Source of the DNA: Burkholderiales bacterium
GTDB taxonomy: Bacteria; Pseudomonadota; Gammaproteobacteria; Burkholderiales; JACQAP01
DNA: 64,000 nt
Assembly: GCA_035548375.1 (NCBI GenBank)
Contig: DASZTG010000022.1
Location: 14,232-78,231, forward strand
Direction: 5' to 3'
The translations under genes and the position numbers were made by a program. How positions within the stretch are numbered: the stretch's first letter is position 1; every line of letters starts with the position of its first letter. Shown here piece after piece: positions 27,493 through 39,006 of the stretch. The notes under the pieces are model-generated. The model had not been told where the DNA came from. It did no database searches and saw nothing but the letters and a program-made list of their open reading frames with translations.

Positions 27493-28287
27493 ATGCAACA
27501 GTACCTCGACCTCATGCGGCACATCCTCGAGAAGGGGGCCCGCAAGGGTGACCGCACCGGCACCGGCACCCTGAGCGTCTTCGGGCCGCAATTGCGCTTC
27601 GACCTGCAGGCCGGCTTCCCGCTGCTCACCACCAAGAAGGTCCACCTCAAGTCCATCATCCACGAGCTGCTGTGGTTCCTGAAGGGCGAGACCAACGTCC
27701 GCTACCTCAAGGAAAACGGCGTCTCGATCTGGGACGAGTGGGCGGACGAAAACGGCGAGCTCGGTCCCGTCTACGGCTACCAGTGGCGCTCCTGGCCCGC
27801 GCCGGACGGCCGGCACATCGACCAGGTCACGCGCGTCATCGACGACATCCGCAAGACGCCGAACTCGCGGCGACTCATCGTCTCCGCCTGGAATGTGGCC
27901 GACCTCGACAAGATGGCGCTGATGCCCTGCCACGCGTTCTTCCAGTTCTACGTGGCCGATGGAAAGCTTTCCTGCCAGCTCTACCAGCGCAGCGCCGACC
28001 TGTTCCTCGGCGTGCCGTTCAACATCGCTTCGTATGCGCTGCTCACCATGATGGTGGCCCAGGTCTGCGGCCTGAAGCCTGGCGAATTCATCCACGCGCT
28101 GGGCGACACGCATCTCTACCTCAACCACCTCGACCAGGCGCGCGAGCAGCTTGCGCGGCAGCCGCGCGCGCTACCGGTGATGGAAATCAATCCCGCCGTG
28201 AAGGACATCTTCGGATTCAGGTACGAGGACTTCACGCTCGAGGCCTACGACCCGCATCCCGCGATCAAGGCGCCCGTAGCGGTATGA
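27493..28287 (+). CDS. thyA: Thymidylate synthase
   Basis: 264 aa from [22 protein letters not shown]. Catalytic motif ([13 protein letters not shown]). The track ORF is extended far upstream, antisense to aroC. Confidence 0.97.
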
Positions 28288-28778
28288 CGCCGCGGGTGTC
28301 GATCATCGTCGCGATGGCGAGCAACCGCGTCATCGGCGCGAACAACGCCCTGCCCTGGCACCTGCCGGCCGACTTGAATCGCTTCAAGTCGCTGACGATG
28401 GGTCACCACATCATCATGGGCCGCAAGACCTTCGAATCCATCGGCCGCGTGCTGCCGGGGAGGGCGAGCGTGGTCGTCACCCGGAATCCTGCATGGAAAG
28501 TCGATGGCGCCATCACTGCAAGCAGCTTGCGCGATGCCATCGCAAAGGCGAAGGGGGACGATGAAATCTTCGTGATCGGCGGCGAGCAGATTTTCCGCGA
28601 GGCGCTGCCGCTTGCGGACCGGATCTATCTCACGCAAATCGAGCGGGACTTTGCCGGCGACGTTCATTTTCCGCCGCTCGCGCAGGAGACCTGGTCGCAG
28701 AAATCGAGCGAAAGCGGAAGCGATGAAGCAAGCGGCCTGCGCTACAGCTACAAAACGCTGGAGCGCGTCCGCCAGTAA
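28284..28778 (+). CDS. folA: Dihydrofolate reductase
   Basis: 164 aa from [52 protein letters not shown] overlap with the thyA stop. Confidence 0.93.
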
Positions 28779-28788
28779 ACAGGAATCT

Positions 28789-30990
28789 TCAGTGCCACCG
28801 GTTTCTCCACGCGGCGATCCGATGGGTAGCCACGTCGAACGATTCCGGCGCCAGCCCCGATAGATGGCGTCGCCAGATTTCCTCATAAGCCGCTTCGATT
28901 TCCCGTACGCGTCCTTCCGTGTCGAAGAGCGCGGACGCGAGCGGATCCGTGAGTTTTGCGCGGCGAATACGCTGGAGCGCTTCCGGATTGCGCCCCCATT
29001 CGATCGCCCGCCTGGCATAGGCATCGAGCGAATCCACGATGCCTTCCGGAAAATCGGCGGCCGCGAGTAGGCTGGCCGCCACACGCGATGCGAAACTGCT
29101 TCCCGGCACGGTCAGCAGCGGCAACCCCGCGGATAGTGCATCACAAGCCGTGGTCATCGCGTTGAAGATCGGGGTATCCAGGAACAAATCGGCCAGGCGG
29201 AAGCGTGCGCGATAGCGCTCGCGAGGCTCGAGGGGTGCGAAAATCAGGCGCTCTTCGGCAATGCCACGCTGCGACGCCTCCCTGCGCAAATTGTCCACCG
29301 CCTGCGCATTGCGACCTGCGAGCCAGAGCACGCTGGAGGGTACGGCTCTCAGGATATCCATCCATGCCCCGAAAATTCGCGGTTCGATCTTGTAGTAGTT
29401 GTTGAATGAACAGTAGACGAACGCATTTTCGGGAAGCGCGTAGTCCTCGCGCGAAACCCGGACCGCCGCGAGCGGCTCGAATTTGTCGTAGATGAAAAAC
29501 GTCCGCGGCAGGTAGACGAGTGCCTCCGACCAGGCGGCGCGCTGCTCCGGCGGGCTCGCGGTTCGATCCACGATGCGCCAGGGAACGGCGTCCATTCCCT
29601 GCGATCCCGGGAACGCCAGATAGCCGACCTGGACCGGTGCCGGCCGGCGCGCCGACACGCCAGGGCGCGCGTAAGTCGTATAACCCCCGGCATCGACGAG
29701 GATGTCGATGTCGTCGTTGCGCAGCAGCGAGGCGATGCCGTCGTCGTCCAGCGAGAAGGCCTCCACAAACCTGTCGGCGGCGGCTTCGACGCGCTTGCGG
29801 ATCGCGCTGGCGTCCGCCGGTCCGGTGGAATAGCAGAACACCTCGAATCTCGAGCGGTCGTGCAGCGCGATCAGCGGTCGCAGCAGGTAGGCATTCAGGT
29901 GCTCGCGAAAATCCGGCGACAGGTAGCCGATCCGCAATTTCTTTCGGCTTGTCGATCGCGACGACCTCGCTTCTTGCGCAGCGGCCGCCGTGATTTCCAG
30001 GCGTTGTGCGATCCCGCGCGCGATGGCAAGGCGCAGCCCGTCTTGCAGCGGCAGGGTGAGGGCGTTGTAGGCGACGGCGGGATCCGCGATTCCCTTGTTC
30101 GACGACAACCGTTGCAGCACGATCTCACTGAATCTCGCGATCAAAGCGTCCCGCTGCGACCAGTCGCAATCGTGCAAGCGTTCGTAAGAGGATGACAGGA
30201 AAATCAGTTCCGGATCGAAACGCTCCGGATCATCCGACTTGCGCGGATCGAACGCGTTGGAAAAATCCAGTATCGCCTGCGGATTGCGCGCGCGCACCTC
30301 GTCGAATTCCGCGCGCGCCTCGTCCAGGCGCTCCAGGCTGGCCAGCGCGAGCCCGCGGGCGATTTTCGCGCTGGCATGCATTGGAGCAAGGAGCAAGGTT
30401 GCGTCGCATTCCGCCAGTGATTCGGCCGGGCGCCGCATGGCCAGCAACACCTCCGCAACGTTGAAGCGCGCGTCCGCGTTCTGCGGCTGTTGCGCGGCGA
30501 AAATGCGATTGTTTTCCAGGGCATCTTGCAGGCGCCCGAGCCGGGTCAGGACGTAACCGCGGTTCATGCGCGCCGATGCCGGCGCGTTCCCAAGCGCCAG
30601 CGCCTCGTCGTAGGCATCGAGCGCGCCTGGGTAGTCGCTTGCTTGCTCGCGTATCGCGCCGAGATTGGACCAAAGTTGCGCATTGGCCGGGAGTCGATCC
30701 AGGGCGGCGACCAGCAGCGATTGGCCCTCTGGAACTCGATTGTTGCGGGCGAGAACCGCTACCGTTGCACTGACGGCTTGCACGTTGCAGGGATCGAGCT
30801 CCAACGCACGCTGGAGGACCACGAGCGACGCCTCGTCACGGCCAAGGCGCTCCAGCAGCGCGCCGAGCAGGAAGTGCACACGAGCGTTGTCCGGGTTTTC
30901 CTCGCAAAGTTTCCGGAGCATCGATTCACCCTCCGGACTGCCGCGGACGACCACTTGTGCCGCATCCGCGAGCAGCTTCTCGGAGATCAC
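28789..30990 (-). CDS. TPR-repeat glycosyltransferase, GT41 (SPINDLY/O-GlcNAc-transferase-like) family
   Basis: 733-aa ORF (GTG start overlapping the upstream stop as GTGA). The N-terminal ~250 aa are TPR repeats. The C-terminal half resembles GT41 catalytic lobes (…CSFNNYYKI.P..F..WM.IL..VP.SVLWL…, …LADLFLDT..FNAMTTA.DAL.AGLPLLT..G..FASRVAASLL). Confidence 0.82.
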   Translation of the reverse strand: MISEKLLADAAQVVVRGSPEGESMLRKLCEENPDNARVHFLLGALLERLGRDEASLVVLQRALELDPCNVQAVSATVAVLARNNRVPEGQSLLVAALDRLPANAQLWSNLGAIREQASDYPGALDAYDEALALGNAPASARMNRGYVLTRLGRLQDALENNRIFAAQQPQNADARFNVAEVLLAMRRPAESLAECDATLLLAPMHASAKIARGLALASLERLDEARAEFDEVRARNPQAILDFSNAFDPRKSDDPERFDPELIFLSSSYERLHDCDWSQRDALIARFSEIVLQRLSSNKGIADPAVAYNALTLPLQDGLRLAIARGIAQRLEITAAAAQEARSSRSTSRKKLRIGYLSPDFREHLNAYLLRPLIALHDRSRFEVFCYSTGPADASAIRKRVEAAADRFVEAFSLDDDGIASLLRNDDIDILVDAGGYTTYARPGVSARRPAPVQVGYLAFPGSQGMDAVPWRIVDRTASPPEQRAAWSEALVYLPRTFFIYDKFEPLAAVRVSREDYALPENAFVYCSFNNYYKIEPRIFGAWMDILRAVPSSVLWLAGRNAQAVDNLRREASQRGIAEERLIFAPLEPRERYRARFRLADLFLDTPIFNAMTTACDALSAGLPLLTVPGSSFASRVAASLLAAADFPEGIVDSLDAYARRAIEWGRNPEALQRIRRAKLTDPLASALFDTEGRVREIEAAYEEIWRRHLSGLAPESFDVATHRIAAWRNRWH

Positions 30991-32342
30991 GCGACCTCGG
31001 AGACGAAATCTTCGAACTTGTCCCCGGGTTCGGCCGGAAATTCATCGAGGAAGACGAAGCGAATCTCGAATCCGGGCCCGAAGTGACGGCCGAAGTGCCG
31101 CCGCAGCGCGGAGGTCTCGCCGTCGGAAAATGCCCGCGCCGCAACCATCCTCACCTCGATCTCCCGCAGCGATTTCTGGATGACTTTGAACCGGCGCACC
31201 GGCGCGGCGTTCATCATGACTTCGGTTCCCAGCGTGGGCCAGCGCATCGACCCGTCGGGAAGCCGCAACATGTTGCGGCGGCGCCCGAGTATGCGTCGCA
31301 GCACGGGCAGGCCACGTCCGCAGCGGCAAGCCGGCCCAACCTCGGCGTAGTCGCCGATGTCGTAGCGAATCAGCGGCATCGCGAAATTGTGCAGCGGGGT
31401 CACCAGCACGCGCCCGATTTCGCCGGCACCGCAGGGCGCGCCGTCTTCGCCGACGACTTCGAGCAGCACGCTCTCGGACTGCACGTGATATTCGCCGCTT
31501 TCCGGGCATTGCAATGCCACGTAGCCGGTTTCGCGCGCGGTGTAGACGTCCGACAGCGGGATTTGCCATTGCGTGCGAATGTAGTCGCGCATGTGCGCCG
31601 GGACGGCTTCGCCAAAGCTGCGCGCCTCCCGCAGCCAGGGCATGGTCACCCCTCGGCGCTGTGCCGCCTGCAATACGCCCAGCAGATTCGTCGCGTACCC
31701 GAGCAGGTAGGCGGGTCGCTCTTCCAGGATGCAATCCAGTTGCCGATCGAAGGTCCACTTCACCGGCAGCACTACGCACGGACCGGTTCGCAGCAATCCT
31801 TTGCCCGCATCGCCGAGCCAGTGTTCCTGTACCGCGCGGGAGTCGCCCCCTACGCGCATGGCGACCATCTTTTCGGAGAATTCCCGGCGATGCCACAGAT
31901 GCTCTCGCAGCATGAACGCGTGCCAATAGAACTGCGAGACCGGCGTCGCAAGGAAACGCACGGGCTCGCCGGTGGACCCCGAGGTCGCATTCTCCGAAGG
32001 GCTGCCGTGGCCCTCAGGCAGCCTCGTGGTAGTGAGCGTGGAGAAATGGTCCTGCAATTGCGCGCGCGAAAGCGTTGGCAACTCTGCGAAATCCGACAGA
32101 GAGAACGATGCGTCGTCGTCGGTAAATTTTCGGGGGAACCGTCCGCGGTAGAACGGCACATGCGCAGCCGCGTGCCGGAGAAGCCCCGCGAGTTGGCGGC
32201 GCTGGAGCGTCCACAATTCGGCAGGGGACAGCCACTGGCTGCGCTCCAGCTGGAACAGCACCGACAGCATCGCGCCGCCGGCCTGGTCCGGTACGGCGGG
32301 CCAGGTCAGCCCGTCGACGGAGGATCGCAGCGCTTCGAGCAC
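30987..32342 (-). CDS. Adenylate-forming enzyme, PaaK / coenzyme-F390-synthetase-like family
   Basis: 451-aa ORF (GTG start, 4 nt after the upstream stop). Phosphate-binding loop ATSGSTGEPVRF, Y.TRETG motif, C-terminal lobe ending with a conserved Lys region (EPGDKFEDFVSE). Size and motifs fit the PaaK/CapK/F390-synthetase clade rather than long acyl-CoA ligases. Confidence 0.78.
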   Translation of the reverse strand: MLEALRSSVDGLTWPAVPDQAGGAMLSVLFQLERSQWLSPAELWTLQRRQLAGLLRHAAAHVPFYRGRFPRKFTDDDASFSLSDFAELPTLSRAQLQDHFSTLTTTRLPEGHGSPSENATSGSTGEPVRFLATPVSQFYWHAFMLREHLWHRREFSEKMVAMRVGGDSRAVQEHWLGDAGKGLLRTGPCVVLPVKWTFDRQLDCILEERPAYLLGYATNLLGVLQAAQRRGVTMPWLREARSFGEAVPAHMRDYIRTQWQIPLSDVYTARETGYVALQCPESGEYHVQSESVLLEVVGEDGAPCGAGEIGRVLVTPLHNFAMPLIRYDIGDYAEVGPACRCGRGLPVLRRILGRRRNMLRLPDGSMRWPTLGTEVMMNAAPVRRFKVIQKSLREIEVRMVAARAFSDGETSALRRHFGRHFGPGFEIRFVFLDEFPAEPGDKFEDFVSEVA

Positions 32343-32346
32343 GCCG

Positions 32347-34353
32347 CTAGTGCGCCTGCGTCGGCACCAGGCTGGTTTGCTTCAGTGCCGCGGCACCGAC
32401 AAAAGTATCCGACGACACTGCCAGGTCGTTGACGTTGTATACGACCCCGGCCCTTGCGGCATTGGTGCCCGCAAAGTAGCCCTGCAGGTTCACGAAACCG
32501 CTGGTCGTGTTGCCGGTTGCAAAGAACGTCCCGCCGCACATGCCGCCACTAAACGTGGCGGAGACCGATTGGCTTGCCAGCGTCCAGTTCGCCGATCCAT
32601 TGATATTGGCGTTTTGCGCGCCAAGGAAGTTCACGCTCATGGCCATGGAATTCAACGTACCCGCCACTGCGCCGGTACTGGTGCTCGTCGGCTGCGTGGC
32701 GCCCAGCAGCGTATAGGTGCCGGTCGTTCCACCCAGCGCAGTCATGTTCGCATCGGAAGTCGGAATTCCTGCGACATAGTGCAACGTTCCTCCCGAGCAG
32801 CATTCGCCGCCGGTAGCGCTCGACGCCCTTCCCCACGCGATGATGCCGTCGTTGCCGGAGGTCGCCACCGGTCCGGATACGCTGACGGCTCCGACGCCAT
32901 CACTGAATTGCGTAAGCAGGCCGGAGCTGAAGGAAGTTCCCGTAAACGTGACGACCTGACTGGTTATTTCGGCGTTCGCGATGCCTACGTTCCAGAGCGG
33001 CGCAACGGAAGACTGCGTAAGCGCCGCCGCGCCGGCGAAACTATCCTGCGAAGCGATCGAAGAATCGAATACGTTGTAGACGACACCCGCCCGCGCGGCG
33101 TTGGCGCCAGCAAAAAATCCGGTCAGGCTGACCGAGCCGGAAAAGCTCGTCGGTCCGCTCGCAAAGAAGGCGGCGCCGTCCGTACCGCCCGAGAACGTCG
33201 CGGACAACGCCTGATTGAGCAGGGTCCAGCTCATCGTTCCCTTGACGTTCGCGTTGCTGCCGCCTAGAAAATCCGCGATCATCGTCATGCTGTTAAGCGT
33301 GCCGGCGACCGCGCCAGTGTTGACGCTCGTCGGATTGGTCGCGCCAAGCAGGGTGTAAGTCGCCTGCATGCCGCCAAGGGCCGTGAAATCCGTCGTCGGA
33401 ATGCCCGCCACGTAGTGGAGGACCTGATCGGCGTTGAAGATGCAGCATTCGCCGCCGGTTGCGCCGGACGCCGTGCCCCACGCAATGACGCCGTCGTTGC
33501 CCACACTCACGGGATTTCGCAGCGTGACCGCGCCGACGTTGTCATCGAAATCGGTCATGCGTCCCAGTGCGTCGAGATTCGCGCGCGTGGAGTCATATAC
33601 GTTGGCCCCACTGGCACCGGCAATACCGACGTGTGCCGGCTTCACCGTTCCGGTGAGTATGGACCCGCAGCCGACGATGTCGCAGTTGTAGCCGCTGGAA
33701 TTCACCGCCTCGCCCTGCTTGAACTGGGGCGGTGGCGATTCCGGCGGCGGCGGCGGCAAGTCGGTGCGCTTGTTCGTGATCACCGGCTTCACTTCCTGAC
33801 CCTGCACGTAGTAGGACTCGCCGTTCATGACGCTCAGGCAGCCGCCGCCGTTGCAGACGTTGATCTCGCCCTCGCCGACGGTCCCGGTCACGGAATGGCC
33901 GTACTCGATCGTGTATTCCGTGCCGCGAATGCCGATGGTAGCCACGGAAGTGGTGACCTGATAGTTGCCCTTGTTCGTCCGCCCCACCAATCCGGTGATC
34001 GTGCGCAGCCCGCCCTTCAGCAGGCTGAAGAACCCCTTTTCGCTGCCGTCCTGCTTGCCTTCGTAACGGTATTGGTCGATGCGGAACTGCGACTCGGGCT
34101 GCAGCGACACATACGCGCCGTCGGTGAAGCGCAATTGCGCGCGGCCGCCGTTCGTGTTGATCGTGTCGCCCTGCTCGATCGGCGCGCCCTTGCCGATCGG
34201 CCGGCTTTGGCCGCCCGCGCCAGTGGCGGTGACGTTTCCGATCGCGAAATCGACGCGCGCGGCTGGCGCGGAGTATCCGACGACCGGATAGGCTGCTGCA
34301 ATCGCCGCGAGCAGCGCCGCGCGACAGTTCAGACTGAAATGTTCCTGGGGCAT
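32347..34353 (-). CDS. Secreted FecR-domain protein with two tandem ~180-aa C-terminal modules
   Basis: 668-aa ORF. Sec-type signal (no lipobox Cys after the h-region). FecR-like domain (aa ~35-150: …G.PI..GDTI.T..G.RAQLRF.DGA.V.L.P.S.F.I…). Poly-Pro linker (DLPPPPPESPPPQ). Two homologous modules (aa ~270-450 and ~484-661), each with a GGECC motif and ending in G(F/Y)FAG.NAARAGVVYNV. Confidence 0.8.
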   Translation of the reverse strand: MPQEHFSLNCRAALLAAIAAAYPVVGYSAPAARVDFAIGNVTATGAGGQSRPIGKGAPIEQGDTINTNGGRAQLRFTDGAYVSLQPESQFRIDQYRYEGKQDGSEKGFFSLLKGGLRTITGLVGRTNKGNYQVTTSVATIGIRGTEYTIEYGHSVTGTVGEGEINVCNGGGCLSVMNGESYYVQGQEVKPVITNKRTDLPPPPPESPPPQFKQGEAVNSSGYNCDIVGCGSILTGTVKPAHVGIAGASGANVYDSTRANLDALGRMTDFDDNVGAVTLRNPVSVGNDGVIAWGTASGATGGECCIFNADQVLHYVAGIPTTDFTALGGMQATYTLLGATNPTSVNTGAVAGTLNSMTMIADFLGGSNANVKGTMSWTLLNQALSATFSGGTDGAAFFASGPTSFSGSVSLTGFFAGANAARAGVVYNVFDSSIASQDSFAGAAALTQSSVAPLWNVGIANAEITSQVVTFTGTSFSSGLLTQFSDGVGAVSVSGPVATSGNDGIIAWGRASSATGGECCSGGTLHYVAGIPTSDANMTALGGTTGTYTLLGATQPTSTSTGAVAGTLNSMAMSVNFLGAQNANINGSANWTLASQSVSATFSGGMCGGTFFATGNTTSGFVNLQGYFAGTNAARAGVVYNVNDLAVSSDTFVGAAALKQTSLVPTQAH

Positions 34354-34460
34354 TCGACCTCTCCCTTGCGGTTCGGCTCGTCGTCGGCGTTCCTGGTGCC
34401 GGTCACCAGATCGCCGATCGAGGCAGCATTAACTGGATACGCCAAAAGCGAAACACATGC

Positions 34461-34484
34461 CAAAAGATCGTCGCACGCGACGAC
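34461..34484 (-). terminator. Weak hairpin plus U-run after the outer-membrane protein gene
   Basis: Minus strand tcgtcgc-gt-gcgacga followed by tCTTTTg, starting 4 nt after the stop at 34488. Short stem with a very small loop, so at best a partial terminator. Confidence 0.35.
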
Positions 34485-34487
34485 CGC

Positions 34488-35834
34488 TCAGATATCGTAG
34501 TGCAGCAATATCTGGTAGATGACCCTGTCGTATTCGTAGATCGATATGTTCGACGGATTGTTGGTCCAGTTGACCTGGGGCGTGATCCTCAGGTTCTTTT
34601 TCGGGACGAAGATCATGCCGGCCGCGGCATTGTATTGCGTGTCCTCGCGATCCTCGGCGAAGAGCGGGTCCGGGCCGCCGTACTTGCGCTTCTCGACGCT
34701 GCCGTTGGCGAAAAGCGCGTATTTCTCGACCACGTTCCATTGTGCACCCAGGCGCGCCCCATAGAAGTTATTGCCGAATTGCGGCACTCCGGCGTGGGTT
34801 TCGACTTCCGAGCCGCCGTATGCCCCAACGTAGGTGACCAGCGTGCCTCGTCCGAATGCGTGCGCATAGCCCGCGCCACCCACGTAGCGGTTGGCATTGC
34901 GGATTTCCTGTCCCGGGTATTCCAGAAAGCTGTACTGCCCGAAGATGCTCACCTGGTTGCGCGAATCGAAATCATGCTGCCATTGTGCGGTCACGCCGGA
35001 CGCATTCCGGTAGGCATCGGGGTAAAGCGCTGTGTTGTCGACGAAGAAGGAATTGAATTGCCCGCCGAAGGTCCACGTATCGCGATCCCTCCGATAGGCC
35101 AATCCCAGGTTGACGTCATAGTAATAGGTCGAGAAATCGGATTGTTCGTAGTTGGTCTTGTTCTGGTACGCCAGGCCGCCGAACAGGCTCAAGCTCTTGG
35201 AGAATGGATGCGTAAAGCTGACACCGCCGCCGAACATGACGAACGCGTCTTTTTGCTGTTGCGACGCGGGAGCGAGCGCGAAGGGAAGTCCGCCGAAGGC
35301 CGGCACCGCGATCTGCGAATCCGACGTAGCGCTGTTCACGTTGGTGTCGTAGCCGATGCCTATTTCTACGAAGCCGTGAATGGTCGTTCGCGAAGCTTCG
35401 TCTATGCGGTTGATGGCATCCAGGAAACGGTCGATGGTTACCGAAACCTCGGGCGGGACCTCCGATTTCTTGACGTTCTCGAATTCCCGTTTCGACGTTT
35501 CGATTTCCTTGAGGTTGAAGTAAGCGCGCGCGATTTTTTCGCGCGCCGGCGCGGCATTAGGCTTCACGGCGAGCACGCGTTCGAGAGCGAACACGGCTTC
35601 CGTGTACTTGCCAAGGTCGAGGGCCGCGGATCCCAGCAGGAAATCGAAATCGGGATCGCCCGCGCGAGTCGATTGCAGCGGAATGAGCAGGTTGTAGGCG
35701 GCTTGCGCGTTGCCGCTATCGAGAAGCTGCTTGGCTTGCAGGACGATGTCATCGGCCGCAGACGCGGCCAACGGGAAAACCAGCGCACAAATTAGCGATG
35801 CTGCGATCCGGCGCAGAAGCCGCATGAGATTCAT
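34488..35834 (-). CDS. Outer-membrane protein: N-terminal TPR domain plus C-terminal beta-barrel (Slam/DUF560-like)
   Basis: 448-aa ORF. Signal peptide (…FPLAASAADD). About 130 aa of TPR-like helices. The remaining ~290 aa show alternating aromatic/hydrophobic beta-strand patterning rich in G/Y/N/F (GIGYDTNVNSA, LAYRRDRDTW, YVGGAGYAHAF…). This architecture matches surface-lipoprotein assembly modulator (DUF560) proteins as I recall them. Family assignment not verified. Confidence 0.72.
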   Translation of the reverse strand: MNLMRLLRRIAASLICALVFPLAASAADDIVLQAKQLLDSGNAQAAYNLLIPLQSTRAGDPDFDFLLGSAALDLGKYTEAVFALERVLAVKPNAAPAREKIARAYFNLKEIETSKREFENVKKSEVPPEVSVTIDRFLDAINRIDEASRTTIHGFVEIGIGYDTNVNSATSDSQIAVPAFGGLPFALAPASQQQKDAFVMFGGGVSFTHPFSKSLSLFGGLAYQNKTNYEQSDFSTYYYDVNLGLAYRRDRDTWTFGGQFNSFFVDNTALYPDAYRNASGVTAQWQHDFDSRNQVSIFGQYSFLEYPGQEIRNANRYVGGAGYAHAFGRGTLVTYVGAYGGSEVETHAGVPQFGNNFYGARLGAQWNVVEKYALFANGSVEKRKYGGPDPLFAEDREDTQYNAAAGMIFVPKKNLRITPQVNWTNNPSNISIYEYDRVIYQILLHYDI

Positions 35835-35891
35835 CCTCTTGTTTGAATATCCAGCCTAAATCGCGAGATTGAAAGACTTTTTACCGCGGGC

Positions 35892-35921
35892 ACATTACCG
35901 GAATCGAGCGCCCAGCGTCAA
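35892..35921 (-). promoter_or_regulatory. Candidate sigma70 promoter for the accessory operon
   Basis: Minus strand TTGACG-N18-TAATGT, about 55 nt upstream of the ATG at 35834, which has an AAGAGG Shine-Dalgarno sequence. A 6-1-6 palindrome ACGCTT-T-AAGCGT abuts the -35 hexamer. Confidence 0.4.
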
Positions 35922-36096
35922 ACGCTTTAAGCGTGAAAAGGGGCGTAACGGCCAAATCTGCCGCATGGAGACCGAATTTCGCTCGCAATTGAGCGTGCGG
36001 GGGCGGACCAGGGCCTCCGGATGGGATGAATCCGGGAATACATTCCCTTCGAAAGTCCGTGCGCCGGTCAGGAATTCGTAAGCCGGCTTGGTCTGG

Positions 36097-38352
36097 CTAG
36101 CCTTGGCGCACGCAATCCACGTAGTAGCGCAACTCACCTCCGGACGCTTCCTCGACGAGACCGTGGATGTCGGTATCGAAACCGGGGAATGTCTTGTTGA
36201 ATTCGCGTGCGAACTGCAGGTAGCGCACGATCGTCTGGTTGAAGCGCTCCCCGGGAACGAGCAACGGTATGCCGGGCGGATAGGGCGTCAACAGAACGCT
36301 GGTGACGCGACCTTCCAGCTTGTCGATATCGACGCGGTCGATTTCACGGTGCGCCATGGCGGCAAACGCGTCCGAGGGCTTCATCGACGGCTGCATGTCC
36401 GACAGGTACATCTCGGTGGTCAGGCGCGCGATGTCGTTGGCCTTGTACATGCCGTGGATCTGGTTGCACAGGTCGCGCAAGCCCATGCGCTCATAGCGCG
36501 GATGCGCCTGGCAGAACTCAGGCAGGATGCGCCACATCGGCTGGTTCTTGTCGTAATCGTCCTTGAACTGCTGTAGCGCCGTCAGCAGAGTGTTCCAGCG
36601 GCCCTTGGTGATGCCGATCGTGAACATGATGAAGAACGAATACAGGCCGGTCTTCTCGACAATGACGCCGTGCTCGGCCAGGTATTTGGTCACGATCGAC
36701 GCCGGAATGCCGGTCTTGGCGAACTTGCCCGACACATCCAGTCCCGGCGTGATCACCGTTGACTTGATCGGATCCAGCATGTTGAAGCCGGGCGCGAGGT
36801 TGCCGAAGCCGTGCCATTTCTCGTTGGCCTTGAGCACCCATTCGTCGCGCGAGCCGATGCCTTCGGCCGCGATCTTCTCCGGCCCCCAGACCTTGAACCA
36901 CCAGTCCTTGCCGAACTCGTCGTCGACCTTGCGCATGGCACGACGGAAGTCCAGCGCCTCCGCGATGGATTCCTCCACCAGCGCCGTGCCGCCCGGCGGC
37001 TCCATCATCGCCGCCGCCACGTCGCAGGACGCGATGATCGCGTACTGCGGCGAGGTCGAGGTGTGCATGAGGTAGGCCTCGTTGAACACGTGGCGGTCGA
37101 GCTTGCGCGTCTGCGACTCCTGCACCAGGATCTGCGAGGCCTGCGAAATACCCGCCAGCAGCTTGTGCGTCGAGTGCGTCGCGTAAATGATCGCGTCCTT
37201 CGGCCGCGGCCTGTCCTTGCCGATCGCATGCATGTCCTTGTAGAACTCGTGGAACGTGGCATGCGGCAGCCACGCCTCGTCGAAATGCAGCGTCTCGATC
37301 GATGAGTTGAGCGTTTCCTTCAACGTCTCGACGTTGTAAACCACGCCGTCGTAGGTGCTCTGCGTGATCGTCAGGATGCGCGGCTTCTTGCGCTTGGCGT
37401 TGCGCGCGAACGGATTCGCCTCGATCTTCTTCTGGATGTTCTCCGGCTTGAATTCCTCCAGGGGAATCGGGCCGATGATGCCCAGGTGGTTGCGCGTCGG
37501 CGTCAGGAAGACGGGGATGGCGCCGGTCATCGTGATCGCGTGCAGGATGGACTTGTGGCAGTTGCGATCGACGACGACGATGTCGTCGGGCGCGACGTTG
37601 GCATGCCAGACCATCTTGTTCGAAGTCGACGTGCCGTTCGTGACGAAGAAACAGTGGTCGGCATTGAAGATTCGCGCCGCATTACGCTCCGACGCCGCGA
37701 CCGGGCCGGTGTGGTCCAGCAACTGGCCGAGCTCGTCCACCGCGTTGCAAACGTCGGCGCGCAGCATGTTTTCGCCGAAGAACTGGTGGAACATCTGGCC
37801 GACCGGGCTTTTCAGGAAGGCCACGCCGCCGGAATGCCCCGGACAGTGCCAGGAGTACGAACCATCCTGCGCATAGTGCGTCAGCGCGCGGAAGAACGGC
37901 GGCGCCAGGCTGTCGAGGTAGGAGCGCGCCTCGCGGATGATGTGCCGGGCGACGAATTCCGGCGTGTCCTCGAACATGTGGATGAACCCGTGCAGCTCGC
38001 GCAGGATATCGTTCGGGATGTGGCGTGAGGTGCGCGTCTCGCCGTACAGGTAGATGGGGATGTCGGCGTTGCGGAAACGCAGCTCCTTCACGAAGGCGCG
38101 TACCTTTTCCAGCGCCTTGTTGGTCTCCTCCTCCGATCCGGCGCCGAATTCCTCGTCGTCGATCGACAGGATGAATGCCGACGCCCGGCTTTGCTGCTGC
38201 GCGAACGACGTCAGGTCGCCGTAGCTGGTGACGCCGACCACTTCCATGCCTTCGTCCTCCAGCGCCTTGGCAAGCGCGCGGATGCCCAGGCCGCTGGTGT
38301 TCTCCGAGCGGTAGTCCTCGTCGATGATGACGACGGGAAAGCGGAATTTCAT
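36097..38352 (-). CDS. Orn/Lys/Arg decarboxylase, large fold-type I PLP family (AdiA/LdcC/SpeC-like)
   Basis: 751-aa ORF. N-terminal wing/response-regulator-like domain (MKFRFPVVIIDED…), PLP-lysine motif (ATHSTHKLL), conserved C-terminal domain. Substrate not assignable from sequence alone. Confidence 0.92.
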   Translation of the reverse strand: MKFRFPVVIIDEDYRSENTSGLGIRALAKALEDEGMEVVGVTSYGDLTSFAQQQSRASAFILSIDDEEFGAGSEEETNKALEKVRAFVKELRFRNADIPIYLYGETRTSRHIPNDILRELHGFIHMFEDTPEFVARHIIREARSYLDSLAPPFFRALTHYAQDGSYSWHCPGHSGGVAFLKSPVGQMFHQFFGENMLRADVCNAVDELGQLLDHTGPVAASERNAARIFNADHCFFVTNGTSTSNKMVWHANVAPDDIVVVDRNCHKSILHAITMTGAIPVFLTPTRNHLGIIGPIPLEEFKPENIQKKIEANPFARNAKRKKPRILTITQSTYDGVVYNVETLKETLNSSIETLHFDEAWLPHATFHEFYKDMHAIGKDRPRPKDAIIYATHSTHKLLAGISQASQILVQESQTRKLDRHVFNEAYLMHTSTSPQYAIIASCDVAAAMMEPPGGTALVEESIAEALDFRRAMRKVDDEFGKDWWFKVWGPEKIAAEGIGSRDEWVLKANEKWHGFGNLAPGFNMLDPIKSTVITPGLDVSGKFAKTGIPASIVTKYLAEHGVIVEKTGLYSFFIMFTIGITKGRWNTLLTALQQFKDDYDKNQPMWRILPEFCQAHPRYERMGLRDLCNQIHGMYKANDIARLTTEMYLSDMQPSMKPSDAFAAMAHREIDRVDIDKLEGRVTSVLLTPYPPGIPLLVPGERFNQTIVRYLQFAREFNKTFPGFDTDIHGLVEEASGGELRYYVDCVRQG

Positions 38353-38425: not shown

Positions 38426-38998
38426 CTAGATCTTGGGAAGCGTGACGCCCTGCTGACCCTGGTACTTGCCGCCGCGATCGCGGTAGGAGGTCTCGCAGAC
38501 GTCGTCGGAGTCGGACTCGAAGAAAATCACCTGCGCGACGCCTTCGTTCGCGTAGATTTTCGCGGGCAGCGGCGTCGTGTTGGAAAACTCCAGCGTCACG
38601 TAGCCTTCCCATTCCGGCTCGAACGGCGTGACGTTGACGATGATGCCGCAGCGAGCATAGGTCGATTTGCCGAGGCAGACCGTCAACACGTTGCGCGGAA
38701 TGCGAAAGTATTCGACCGTGCGTGCCAGCGCAAAGGAATTCGGCGGGATGATGCATACGTCGCCGTTGAAATCGACGAAGGACTTTTCGTCGAAGTTCTT
38801 CGGATCCACCATCGTCGAATTGATGTTCGTGAAGATCTTGAAGTCCTTGGAGCAGCGGATGTCGTAGCCATAGCTCGATGTCCCGTAGGACACGATCTTG
38901 TGGCCGTTGACGCTTCTGACCTGACCGGGCTCGAACGGTTCGATCATCCTGTGCTCGGCCGCCATGCGGCGGATCCACTTGTCGGATTTGATGCTCAT
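38426..38998 (-). CDS. dcd: dCTP deaminase
   Basis: 190 aa from [13 protein letters not shown]…MIEPF (Dcd N-terminus). The upstream 93 codons of the track ORF run through an intergenic tandem repeat and terminator. Confidence 0.95.
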
Positions 38999-39006
38999 GC
39001 TTTCGC

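Follow-up and report, generated by a model that had tools for sequence, protein, structure and literature searches.

In the 64,000-nt stretch of the Burkholderiales bacterium contig DASZTG010000022.1 analysed here (the window), four neighbouring genes on the minus strand are predicted to encode a type XI (Slam-like) secretion pair, namely an outer-membrane protein (OMP) and its cargo, together with accessory cytoplasmic modifying enzymes, a CapK/PaaK-like ligase and a glycosyltransferase of family GT41. We put the probability of this reading at roughly 0.55. Type XI secretion itself is known, and the novelty lies in this class of cargo, in the cryptic lobes that it carries and in the OGT-type enzyme that goes with it. 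The positions of the features are collected in Table 1.

The first gene had been described in a first-pass annotation, made from the sequence alone, as encoding a Slam-like protein with a tetratricopeptide repeat (TPR) domain and a beta-barrel, and both profile and model place it there rather than in an unrelated OMP family. The protein scored 37.9 bits on the SlipAM/DUF560 profile PF04575 (gathering score 22), with aa 158-437 aligned to positions 7-277 of the 288 in the profile, TPR profiles including TPR_19 were matched N-terminally in Pfam, and the N-terminal hydrophobic segment ends in ASA-AD. The low PF04575 score indicates a divergent DUF560 member. Among the matches listed, PF04575 was carried by 120 of 120 OMP homologues, several of which are named 'surface lipoprotein assembly modifier' by NCBI. 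In the AlphaFold2 (AF2) model (predicted local distance difference test, pLDDT, 83), seven helices (aa 3-146) are followed by exactly 14 strands (aa 151-447). A 14-strand barrel is predicted for type XI secretins, versus 16 strands in PgaA, and Betaproteobacteria with the same Pfam architecture as the OMP fall in clusters 2 and 1B of the DUF560 network (PMC8406197). From profile and model, the OMP is predicted to be a type XI secretion (DUF560/SlipAM, Slam-like) protein.

The product of the second gene, the cargo, is predicted to be Sec-exported with a signal peptidase I-type signal and to be a non-lipoprotein with a FecR domain, as had been proposed. A hydrophobic N-terminal helix (aa 8-21) leads to an APA-A site, and a lipobox is considered absent because Cys10 is not conserved, with C, G, A, V or S at this position in homologues. 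The FecR domain matched PF04773 at aa 63-163 (E=2.7e-11, 44.2 bits vs. a cut-off of 24). Two tandem modules had also been noted in this protein, and their presence was confirmed (aa 264-450 and 478-662, with 63% identity between the two); they are TbpB-like lobes and not FecR repeats. The AF2 pLDDT is about 97 for lobe 1 and about 90 for lobe 2, and the confidence of the proline-rich linker in front of them is low, consistent with disorder. In a Foldseek search of the PDB with the cargo model, the top 18 matches were full-length TbpB (E 2e-9 to 3e-6, about 490-640 aligned columns), followed by the TbpB C-lobe, the NHBA C-domain (template-modelling (TM) score 0.72-0.75), fHbp, HphA and hemophilin, all of which except NHBA are experimentally established Slam/type XI secretion system (T11SS) cargo. 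The modelled cargo modules thus share the fold of Slam substrates.

The cargo family comprises more than 1,400 proteins in 90%-identity clusters, and the lobe profile is matched by 277 clusters at 50% identity. Most have a single lobe and a length of about 450 aa, the range being one to five lobes and up to 1,302 aa, and 4 of the 4 multi-lobe forms inspected begin with the same N-domain. Mean pairwise identity is 84% for the N-domain and 34-41% for the lobes. Proteins of about 250 aa consisting of the module only were considered as a separate small-cargo class and rejected, being fragments that have lost their N-terminus and begin within the proline linker. Short paralogues (245-263 aa), in which a signal peptide and the same conserved N-domain are followed by a Pro/Gly/Ser-rich tail and TbpB-like lobes are missing, were observed in Rhodocyclaceae/Azospira loci (L035:13553-14290, L069:12203-12943, L042:7779-8570 and L063:4300-5091; L-numbers are the labels of related loci in this analysis). 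The short paralogue adjoins folA in three of these four loci and lies between the decarboxylase and OMP genes in L042, and such lobe-less forms would fit a periplasmic role for the N-domain.

A scan of one genome per species gave 79 cargo-anchored loci, essentially all from Betaproteobacteria (Burkholderiales metagenome-assembled genomes (MAGs), Rhodocyclaceae, Azospira oryzae DSM 21223, Azonexus hydrophilus and Ca. Desulfobacillus denitrificans), the exceptions being two short MAG contigs binned as Hyphomicrobiaceae and Gammaproteobacteria. The OMP gene was found immediately upstream of the cargo gene in 64 of the 72 loci with enough upstream sequence. Of the cargo loci, 51 had 5 kb or more of downstream sequence; a GT41 gene was present in 35 of these (69%) and a ligase gene in 12 (24%). 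The expected gene co-occurrence across Betaproteobacteria was therefore observed as a conserved OMP-cargo pair with frequent GT41, and of the four-gene system first suggested, the two-gene OMP-cargo core stands, GT41 is a frequent accessory and the ligase is only an occasional one.

Some loci hold two to four cargo paralogues behind a single OMP (L028, L055 and L069), and L055 shows the order omp-cargo-GT41-cargo-GT41-cargo-ligase-ligase-cargo on one strand. In an unrelated genomic context, L167 is a tight OMP-cargo-ligase-methyltransferase-GT41 operon, and in L070 and L072 GT41 is next to cargo in non-syntenic contexts and shuffled orders. GT41 was present in 7 of the 16 non-syntenic loci, that is, those without the decarboxylase and folA landmarks. 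Genes encoding GT4, methyltransferase, GNAT and sulfotransferase fill the enzyme slot in other loci. Azospira oryzae DSM 21223 carries OMP-cargo-GT41, and Azonexus hydrophilus has no GT41. A different locus type, with a giant glycine-rich (25% Gly) repetitive protein, was observed in L161:1-11206, L164:1-6679 and L166:3-8403, and it also holds a 233-aa FecR-N-domain protein, a 395-aa GT-B glycosyltransferase, a CapK-like ligase and a methyltransferase.

The fourth gene encodes a TPR-GT41 glycosyltransferase, as first annotated, and the proposed HMW1C/NGT type was not borne out. The protein matched PF13844 (E=2e-91, 307 bits) in addition to TPRs, and its PDB matches were of the OGT type: human OGT (1e-96, over both the TPR and catalytic parts), XcOGT (1e-58) and SPINDLY (3e-58). 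No HMW1C-like chain was present among 50 PDB matches at E<=1e-5. The motifs SPDFREH, FNNYYKIEP, DTPIFNAMTTA and ASRVAAS line up with the catalytic and UDP-binding motifs of OGT, including the His of SPDFREH, the Lys of YYKIEP and the Thr-Thr of AMTTA, and the intervening domain of metazoan OGT is absent. Since the enzyme is OGT/SPINDLY-type with TPRs, an O-linkage is predicted. Neither a signal peptide nor a transmembrane or hydrophobic segment was detected in GT41 or the ligase, and both are predicted to be cytoplasmic; without export signals, any action of theirs on the cargo would have to precede Sec export.

The link between GT41 and the secretion pair was also seen from the enzyme side. 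In a reverse metagenome scan seeded with six GT41 sequences, which covered 79 metagenome loci, the 10 closest GT41 relatives all adjoin cargo-family genes, nine of them cargo genes and one a short FecR paralogue. Most GT41 relatives at 33-40% identity are not beside cargo and often form tandem GT41 arrays. On soil metagenome contigs (L090, L092, L094, L095, L108, L114 and L117), such arrays consist of three to five full-length TPR-GT41 paralogues with no cargo nearby. The case that GT41 belongs to the system is good, though indirect.

For the third gene, the earlier assignment to a PaaK/F390-synthetase-like enzyme holds at the level of PDB matches (PaaK-like ligases 6siw, AjiA1 and PaaK, at 1e-17), while the curated NCBIfam models, namely the DVU_1553-family AMP ligase (6e-35, 121 bits vs. 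a cut-off of 300), FlxY and PaaK, were all matched below their cut-offs and Pfam gave no match for the window ligase. Homologues at 45-70% identity carry PF27533 CapK_C and PF00501, and L001 and L032 share the ligase N-terminus beginning with the GTG start. The PaaK-like and CapK_C matches point to carboxylate activation as in capsule loci. The slot between the decarboxylase and folA genes was also seen to hold two CapK-like ligases together with ornithine cyclodeaminase, TauD or Sel1 genes (L162:6694-13745, L163:7638-16170 and L165:4649-13687). This slot is a variable region, and the CapK-like ligases there may make a small molecule. The link of the ligase to the system is weaker, because no more than 12 of 51 loci have it and ligases also occur in the same slot where cargo is absent, and its membership is uncertain on this mixed evidence.

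The mechanism that we propose is as follows. The 668-aa cargo would be made in the cytoplasm and exported by Sec without a lipid anchor. The TPR domain and 14-strand DUF560 barrel of the OMP would then recognise its C-terminal TbpB-like handle-barrel lobes and carry them to the cell surface or into the medium, just as TbpB, fHbp and HphA are carried by Slam, so that the variable lobes would be the exposed part. The near-invariant FecR-like N-domain and the proline linker would have a conserved task, possibly periplasmic, such as docking, retention or self-cleavage at Gly144-Thr145. Before export, the OGT-type TPR-GT41 would most likely O-glycosylate Ser/Thr residues of the unfolded pre-protein, and the CapK-like ligase would probably tailor the sugar or its donor; its place is taken in other genomes by a sulfotransferase, GNAT, GT4 or methyltransferase gene. 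What we infer from the families, folds and neighbourhood statistics given above is that the barrel translocates the cargo, how the cargo is oriented and that it is the substrate of the enzymes, and modification of the cargo is judged probable from its gene context. Precedents exist for this order of events, since Aah and TibC glycosylate the adhesins AIDA-I and TibA in the cytoplasm before export. Likewise, HMW1C glycosylates the Sec-exported HMW1 in the cytoplasm (PMC3012730).

Several points weigh against a secretion pair with its own modifying enzymes. Every step of the mechanism is a computational prediction. PF01298 (TbpBBD) had been named among the profiles to be run; neither isolated lobe matched it or any other Pfam profile even at E<=10, and phmmer and family-profile searches against PDB sequences found no Slam cargo and gave just one marginal match, of the N-domain to MpIBP region I, so the cargo assignment rests on predicted structure. 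The best fold match of the OMP model is BcsC, and since no Slam chain was present among its PDB matches in Foldseek, the fold search adds nothing to the Pfam assignment. A conserved N-domain with a variable C-terminal barrel is the reverse of the pattern described for cluster 1 cargo. On the enzyme side, about 31% of the cargo loci (16/51) are without GT41 and 76% without the ligase; the ligase pairs of L162, L163 and L165 occupy the slot with no OMP, cargo or GT41; and the Ser/Thr fraction, N-X-S/T count, length and Cys count did not differ between GT41-positive and GT41-negative cargo.

The explanation that survives best beside the preferred one accepts the OMP and cargo as a genuine type XI pair and takes GT41 and the ligase as unrelated residents of the variable decarboxylase-folA region, GT41 acting on cytoplasmic proteins and the ligase on a small metabolite. 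We consider it possible, though on the unlikely side. The variable content of the slot, the cargo loci without GT41 and the lack of a sequence signature in GT41-associated cargo all fit it. Soil bacteria also have TPR-GT41 paralogues in many other places, often arrayed in tandem with no cargo gene, and known bacterial OGT-like enzymes such as Yersinia HmwC are reported to act on cytoplasmic proteins. However, mere residence in a variable region does not account for GT41 staying beside cargo in the non-syntenic contexts and shuffled orders of L055, L167, L070 and L072, for the alternation of GT41 genes with cargo paralogues in L055, or for the ten nearest GT41 relatives, all of which adjoin cargo-family genes. 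In addition, the unrelated locus type with the glycine-rich protein again has glycosyltransferase, ligase and methyltransferase genes next to a FecR-N-domain gene.

Export of a glycoconjugate or polysaccharide was also considered, with the TPR-barrel as a BcsC/PgaA/PelB-like glycan porin, the enzymes building the glycan and the FecR-domain protein as a periplasmic or outer-membrane accessory. After BcsC, itself a TPR-plus-barrel protein, the Foldseek matches of the OMP model were OmpG (14 strands, TM 0.70) and FadL, with PelBC and PgaA-type secretins also present. There were weak NCBIfam matches to EpsL and BcsC; the neighbouring GT4, methyltransferase, GNAT and sulfotransferase genes are typical glycan-tailoring genes; and PF04575 also matches some PgaA homologues (PMC8406197). 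The barrel, however, has the 14 strands predicted for T11SS and not the 16 of PgaA/BcsC (PMC8406197), and a TbpB-like protein gene follows it directly in 64 of the 72 loci. GT41 is a protein-glycosylating family, and no gene for an inner-membrane synthase, flippase, polymerase or copolymerase was found in the window or the 79 cargo-anchored loci. Glycan export is considered quite improbable.

The idea that the FecR-domain protein is not secreted cargo and is instead a cell-surface signalling component sensing through the OMP draws on the above-threshold PF04773 match, the conserved FecR/FoxR Gly-Thr self-cleavage motif and the strong purifying selection on the N-domain, but it was rejected as hardly credible, as the anti-sigma domain DUF4880, the transmembrane anchor and FecR_C are absent, a cleavable signal peptide is predicted at the start, no extracytoplasmic function (ECF) sigma factor or TonB-dependent transducer gene was found in the window region or related loci, and the partner is a DUF560 barrel and not a TonB-dependent receptor. 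Neither DUF4880 nor FecR_C was detected in the cargo or in the 233-aa short paralogue of L161 by a scan that shows both in E. coli FecR. Because these parts are absent, the FecR name is misleading for the cargo.

The N-domain of the cargo nevertheless shares one feature with FecR. Gly144-Thr145 (window 33919-33924, minus strand) aligns with ALG181-T182EFT of E. coli FecR, and the FecR G181-T182 and FoxR G191-T192 bonds self-cleave non-enzymatically via an N-O acyl shift (PMC9249621). AF2 confidence is poor at aa 110-220, around this site. The region aa 34-95 resembles the LapA/MpIBP retention family NF033682 at E=4.6e-5, which is below the cut-off of that model, and PDB 5ix9 at E=0.25; a retention role of the N-domain is pure hypothesis. 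In the most far-reaching version of the proposal, the T11SS cargo would be O-glycosylated in the cytoplasm by a dedicated OGT-type enzyme ahead of Sec export and kept at the cell surface without a lipid anchor, by the FecR-like domain as a periplasmic plug, with Gly-Thr self-cleavage releasing the lobes. We regard this combination as rather improbable. If true, GT41 would be the first glycosyltransferase dedicated to a T11SS, the cargo would be an exported natural substrate of a bacterial OGT homologue, and the way in which it is anchored and released would be new.

The layout of the locus agrees with the first-pass annotation. All four open reading frames (ORFs) were found on the minus strand, and the junctions are as described: 10 nt separate the end of folA at 28778 from the stop codon of GT41, the cargo stop TAG is followed by 4 nt and the ligase start GTG, and GTGA forms the overlap of the ligase gene with the GT41 gene. 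Between the OMP stop and the cargo start there are 134 nt, indicating that these two genes are not tightly coupled. The housekeeping flanks were also confirmed, with thyA and folA (window 27493-28778) and a chorismate synthase gene on one side and an OKR-type basic-amino-acid decarboxylase and dcd (about 38426-39000) on the other. The suggestion of an acquired accessory islet was contradicted. The order decarboxylase-OMP-cargo-[enzymes]-folA-thyA is common to most related loci, in Burkholderiales as well as Rhodocyclaceae, and since this synteny is conserved the position is an old, vertically inherited one and not a recent island acquisition. G+C is flat across the whole locus. In the closest relative, GCA_936414735.1, the cargo is 73% identical and has one lobe. 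A Transposase_mut gene is inserted there between the decarboxylase and OMP genes (L159:6897-7841 and L160:1773-2717), and the window is without such an insertion.

The T11SS genes of the window lie between the genes for thymidylate synthase/DHFR and dCTP deaminase, and the same position was observed in most related loci. In network clusters 1 and 3, T11SS OMP genes were reported to occur significantly often together with DHFR, thymidylate synthase and one-carbon genes, so far without explanation (PMC12282271). The present locus is a further case, this one betaproteobacterial, and adds a third lineage to the co-occurrence of T11SS with folate and thymidylate genes.

Upstream of the OMP gene, a promoter TTGACG-N18-TAATGT with an adjoining palindrome had been proposed. 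Both hexamers are kept in 13 of 13 aligned loci (the window and 12 relatives) by phylogenetic footprinting, and the palindrome was not conserved among these loci. Only 3 of the 6 positions of the TAATGT -10 fit the consensus, and the site was not called by a consensus promoter scanner; because the hexamers are conserved within otherwise unalignable spacers, it is accepted from sequence comparison as a real conserved promoter-like element. Directly downstream, the conserved box at about 35884-35869 resembles ATAAAAAG(Y)CTTT(Y)AA and may mark where transcription starts or where a regulator binds. An Rfam scan of 28000-36500 at E<=1 gave two chance-level matches only, and no family fits this box.

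The OMP ORF starts with an ATG at 35834 that abuts the Shine-Dalgarno sequence AAGAGG. The true start is probably the second ATG at 35825 (445 aa), which is favoured because it aligns with the start codons of homologues and is better spaced from AAGAGG. In the public gene call for the contig, a TTG start gives an OMP of 427 aa with a truncated signal peptide. Within the OMP-cargo spacer, the terminator-like hairpin is weak evidence, because such sites in the region are no commoner than shuffled expectation. The element GGCATGTGTTTCGCTTTTGGCGT at about 34440-34465 (minus strand) was also observed in the long OMP-cargo spacers of L006 and L083, and it is absent from short-spacer loci.

Table 1. 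Genes, domains and non-coding elements of the predicted type XI secretion locus (window coordinates).
Feature	Position	Strand	Description	Basis
OMP gene (gene 1)	34488-35834	minus	ORF of 448 aa; putative signal peptide, TPR domain (aa ~30-146), predicted 14-strand beta-barrel (aa ~150-448)	Pfam and AF2
Cargo gene (gene 2)	32347-34353	minus	668 aa; predicted Sec signal peptide without lipobox, FecR-like N-domain, proline-rich linker, two TbpB-like handle-plus-barrel lobes	Pfam, AF2, Foldseek
FecR-like N-domain	33763-34257	minus	aa ~33-197; invariant IGIRG144-T145EYT, C167...C172 pair	
Proline-rich linker	33709-33762	minus	aa 198-215, DLPPPPPESPPPQFKQGE	conserved DLPPPxPxxPP motif in alignments
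Lobe 1	32998-33666	minus	aa 230-452; predicted beta-sheet handle and 8-strand barrel	AF2/Foldseek
Lobe 2	32350-32922	minus	aa 478-668; duplicate of lobe 1	63% identity to lobe 1
Ligase gene (gene 3)	30987-32342	minus	451 aa; CapK/PaaK-like adenylate-forming enzyme, predicted cytoplasmic	NCBIfam/PDB, below NCBIfam cut-offs
GT41 gene (gene 4)	28789-30990	minus	733 aa; OGT/SPINDLY-type TPR-GT41, TPRs aa ~22-260, catalytic domain aa ~340-720, no intervening domain	Pfam, PDB
Promoter-like element	35892-35921	minus	TTGACG (35921-35916), 18-nt spacer, TAATGT (35897-35892)	conserved across loci
Conserved box	35869-35884	minus	~16 nt, gtAAAAAGtCTTTcAA; directly downstream of the -10-like hexamer	kept in 13/13 aligned loci
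Hairpin and T-run	34470-34484	minus	short GC hairpin then T-run, directly after the OMP stop, inside the 134-nt spacer	terminator-like scan

As the first-pass annotation had suspected, the combination of these genes was not found in the type XI secretion literature, including a search for newer T11SS papers. The published T11SS cargo types are hemophilin-, TbpB-, LbpB-, fHbp- and Pls-like, disordered-N-terminus, Sphingomonas and Psychrobacter cargo, none of them FecR-headed. Soluble T11SS cargo is known, and glycosylation of T11SS cargo has only been suggested, in that other cargo 'may also be glycosylated' (PMC12282271). In the main text of the same paper, FecR cargo, a glycosyltransferase and a ligase are unmentioned. 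FecR PF04773 does appear in its cluster 1 neighbourhood table, and it was rejected as window-type cargo; the entry reflects FecIR systems, since it stands next to sigma-70 domains and fails the false discovery rate cut-off. The seven experimentally verified type XI secretins all belong to the animal-associated cluster 1, and for the environmental clusters the cargo is stated to be unknown (PMC8406197, PMC12282271). Outside cluster 1, the DUF560 network has nine clusters, none of them with a characterised protein (PMC8406197). A large family of environmental Betaproteobacteria thus gains a concrete candidate cargo, with a new architecture of a FecR-like head and one to five lobes that TbpBBD sequence searches miss. 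A connection of a secretion system with an OGT-like glycosyltransferase, a type of enzyme whose bacterial substrates are largely unknown, can also be tested on this locus, and cultured carriers exist in Azospira oryzae DSM 21223 and Azonexus hydrophilus.

Among known systems, the locus resembles Slam1/Slam2 of Neisseria with their cargo TbpB, LbpB, fHbp and HpuA, in which a TPR-plus-14-strand DUF560 OMP is likewise paired with an adjacent gene for a Sec-exported protein with handle and 8-strand barrel lobes, a fold that is taken here from the model. The window cargo is also two-lobed like the bilobed Neisseria TbpB, its top Foldseek match. Unlike the Neisseria cargo, it is predicted to be a non-lipoprotein, is not detected by Pfam TbpBBD and carries the FecR-like N-domain and proline linker; the hosts are free-living Betaproteobacteria, there is no adjacent TonB-dependent receptor, and the OMP is divergent. 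The HrpB/HrpC and Slam/HphA hemophore systems (PMC8406197, PMC8560813) likewise have a non-lipidated Sec-dependent cargo with a C-terminal barrel, which a cognate DUF560 protein secretes. The window cargo lacks a haem-binding clamp, neither haem nor TonB genes lie near it, and the extra FecR-like domain, the one to five lobes across the family and the associated glycosyltransferases are features of the present family. As in the anti-sigma regulators FecR and FoxR, a FecR domain with an invariant Gly-Thr aligned with the self-cleavage site is present (PMC9249621), but here it is fused to TbpB-like lobes and lacks the anti-sigma, transmembrane and FecR_C parts and the sigma and transducer partners. 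With the LapA/MpIBP retention module of type I secretion adhesins, the similarity is non-significant and the secretion system differs, and the concept of an N-terminal folded plug plus linker is shared.

For the enzymes, the nearest parallels are HMW1C-HMW1-HMW1B of Haemophilus and Aah/TibC with AIDA-I/TibA, where a cytoplasmic glycosyltransferase is encoded beside a Sec-exported surface protein and a dedicated outer-membrane transporter, and these precedents make glycosylation before export feasible. The transferase of the HMW1C system is also a GT41 enzyme, but an N-glycosyltransferase, whereas the present one is OGT/SPINDLY-type with TPRs; the exporter here is predicted to be of type XI and not type V, and modification of the cargo is proposed from gene context. 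In its TPRs, GT41 catalytic domain and UDP-binding motifs the enzyme resembles OGT, plant SPINDLY, XcOGT and Thermobaculum OGT, and like XcOGT it has no intervening domain. Its gene context points to one dedicated exported substrate family as opposed to many cytoplasmic targets.

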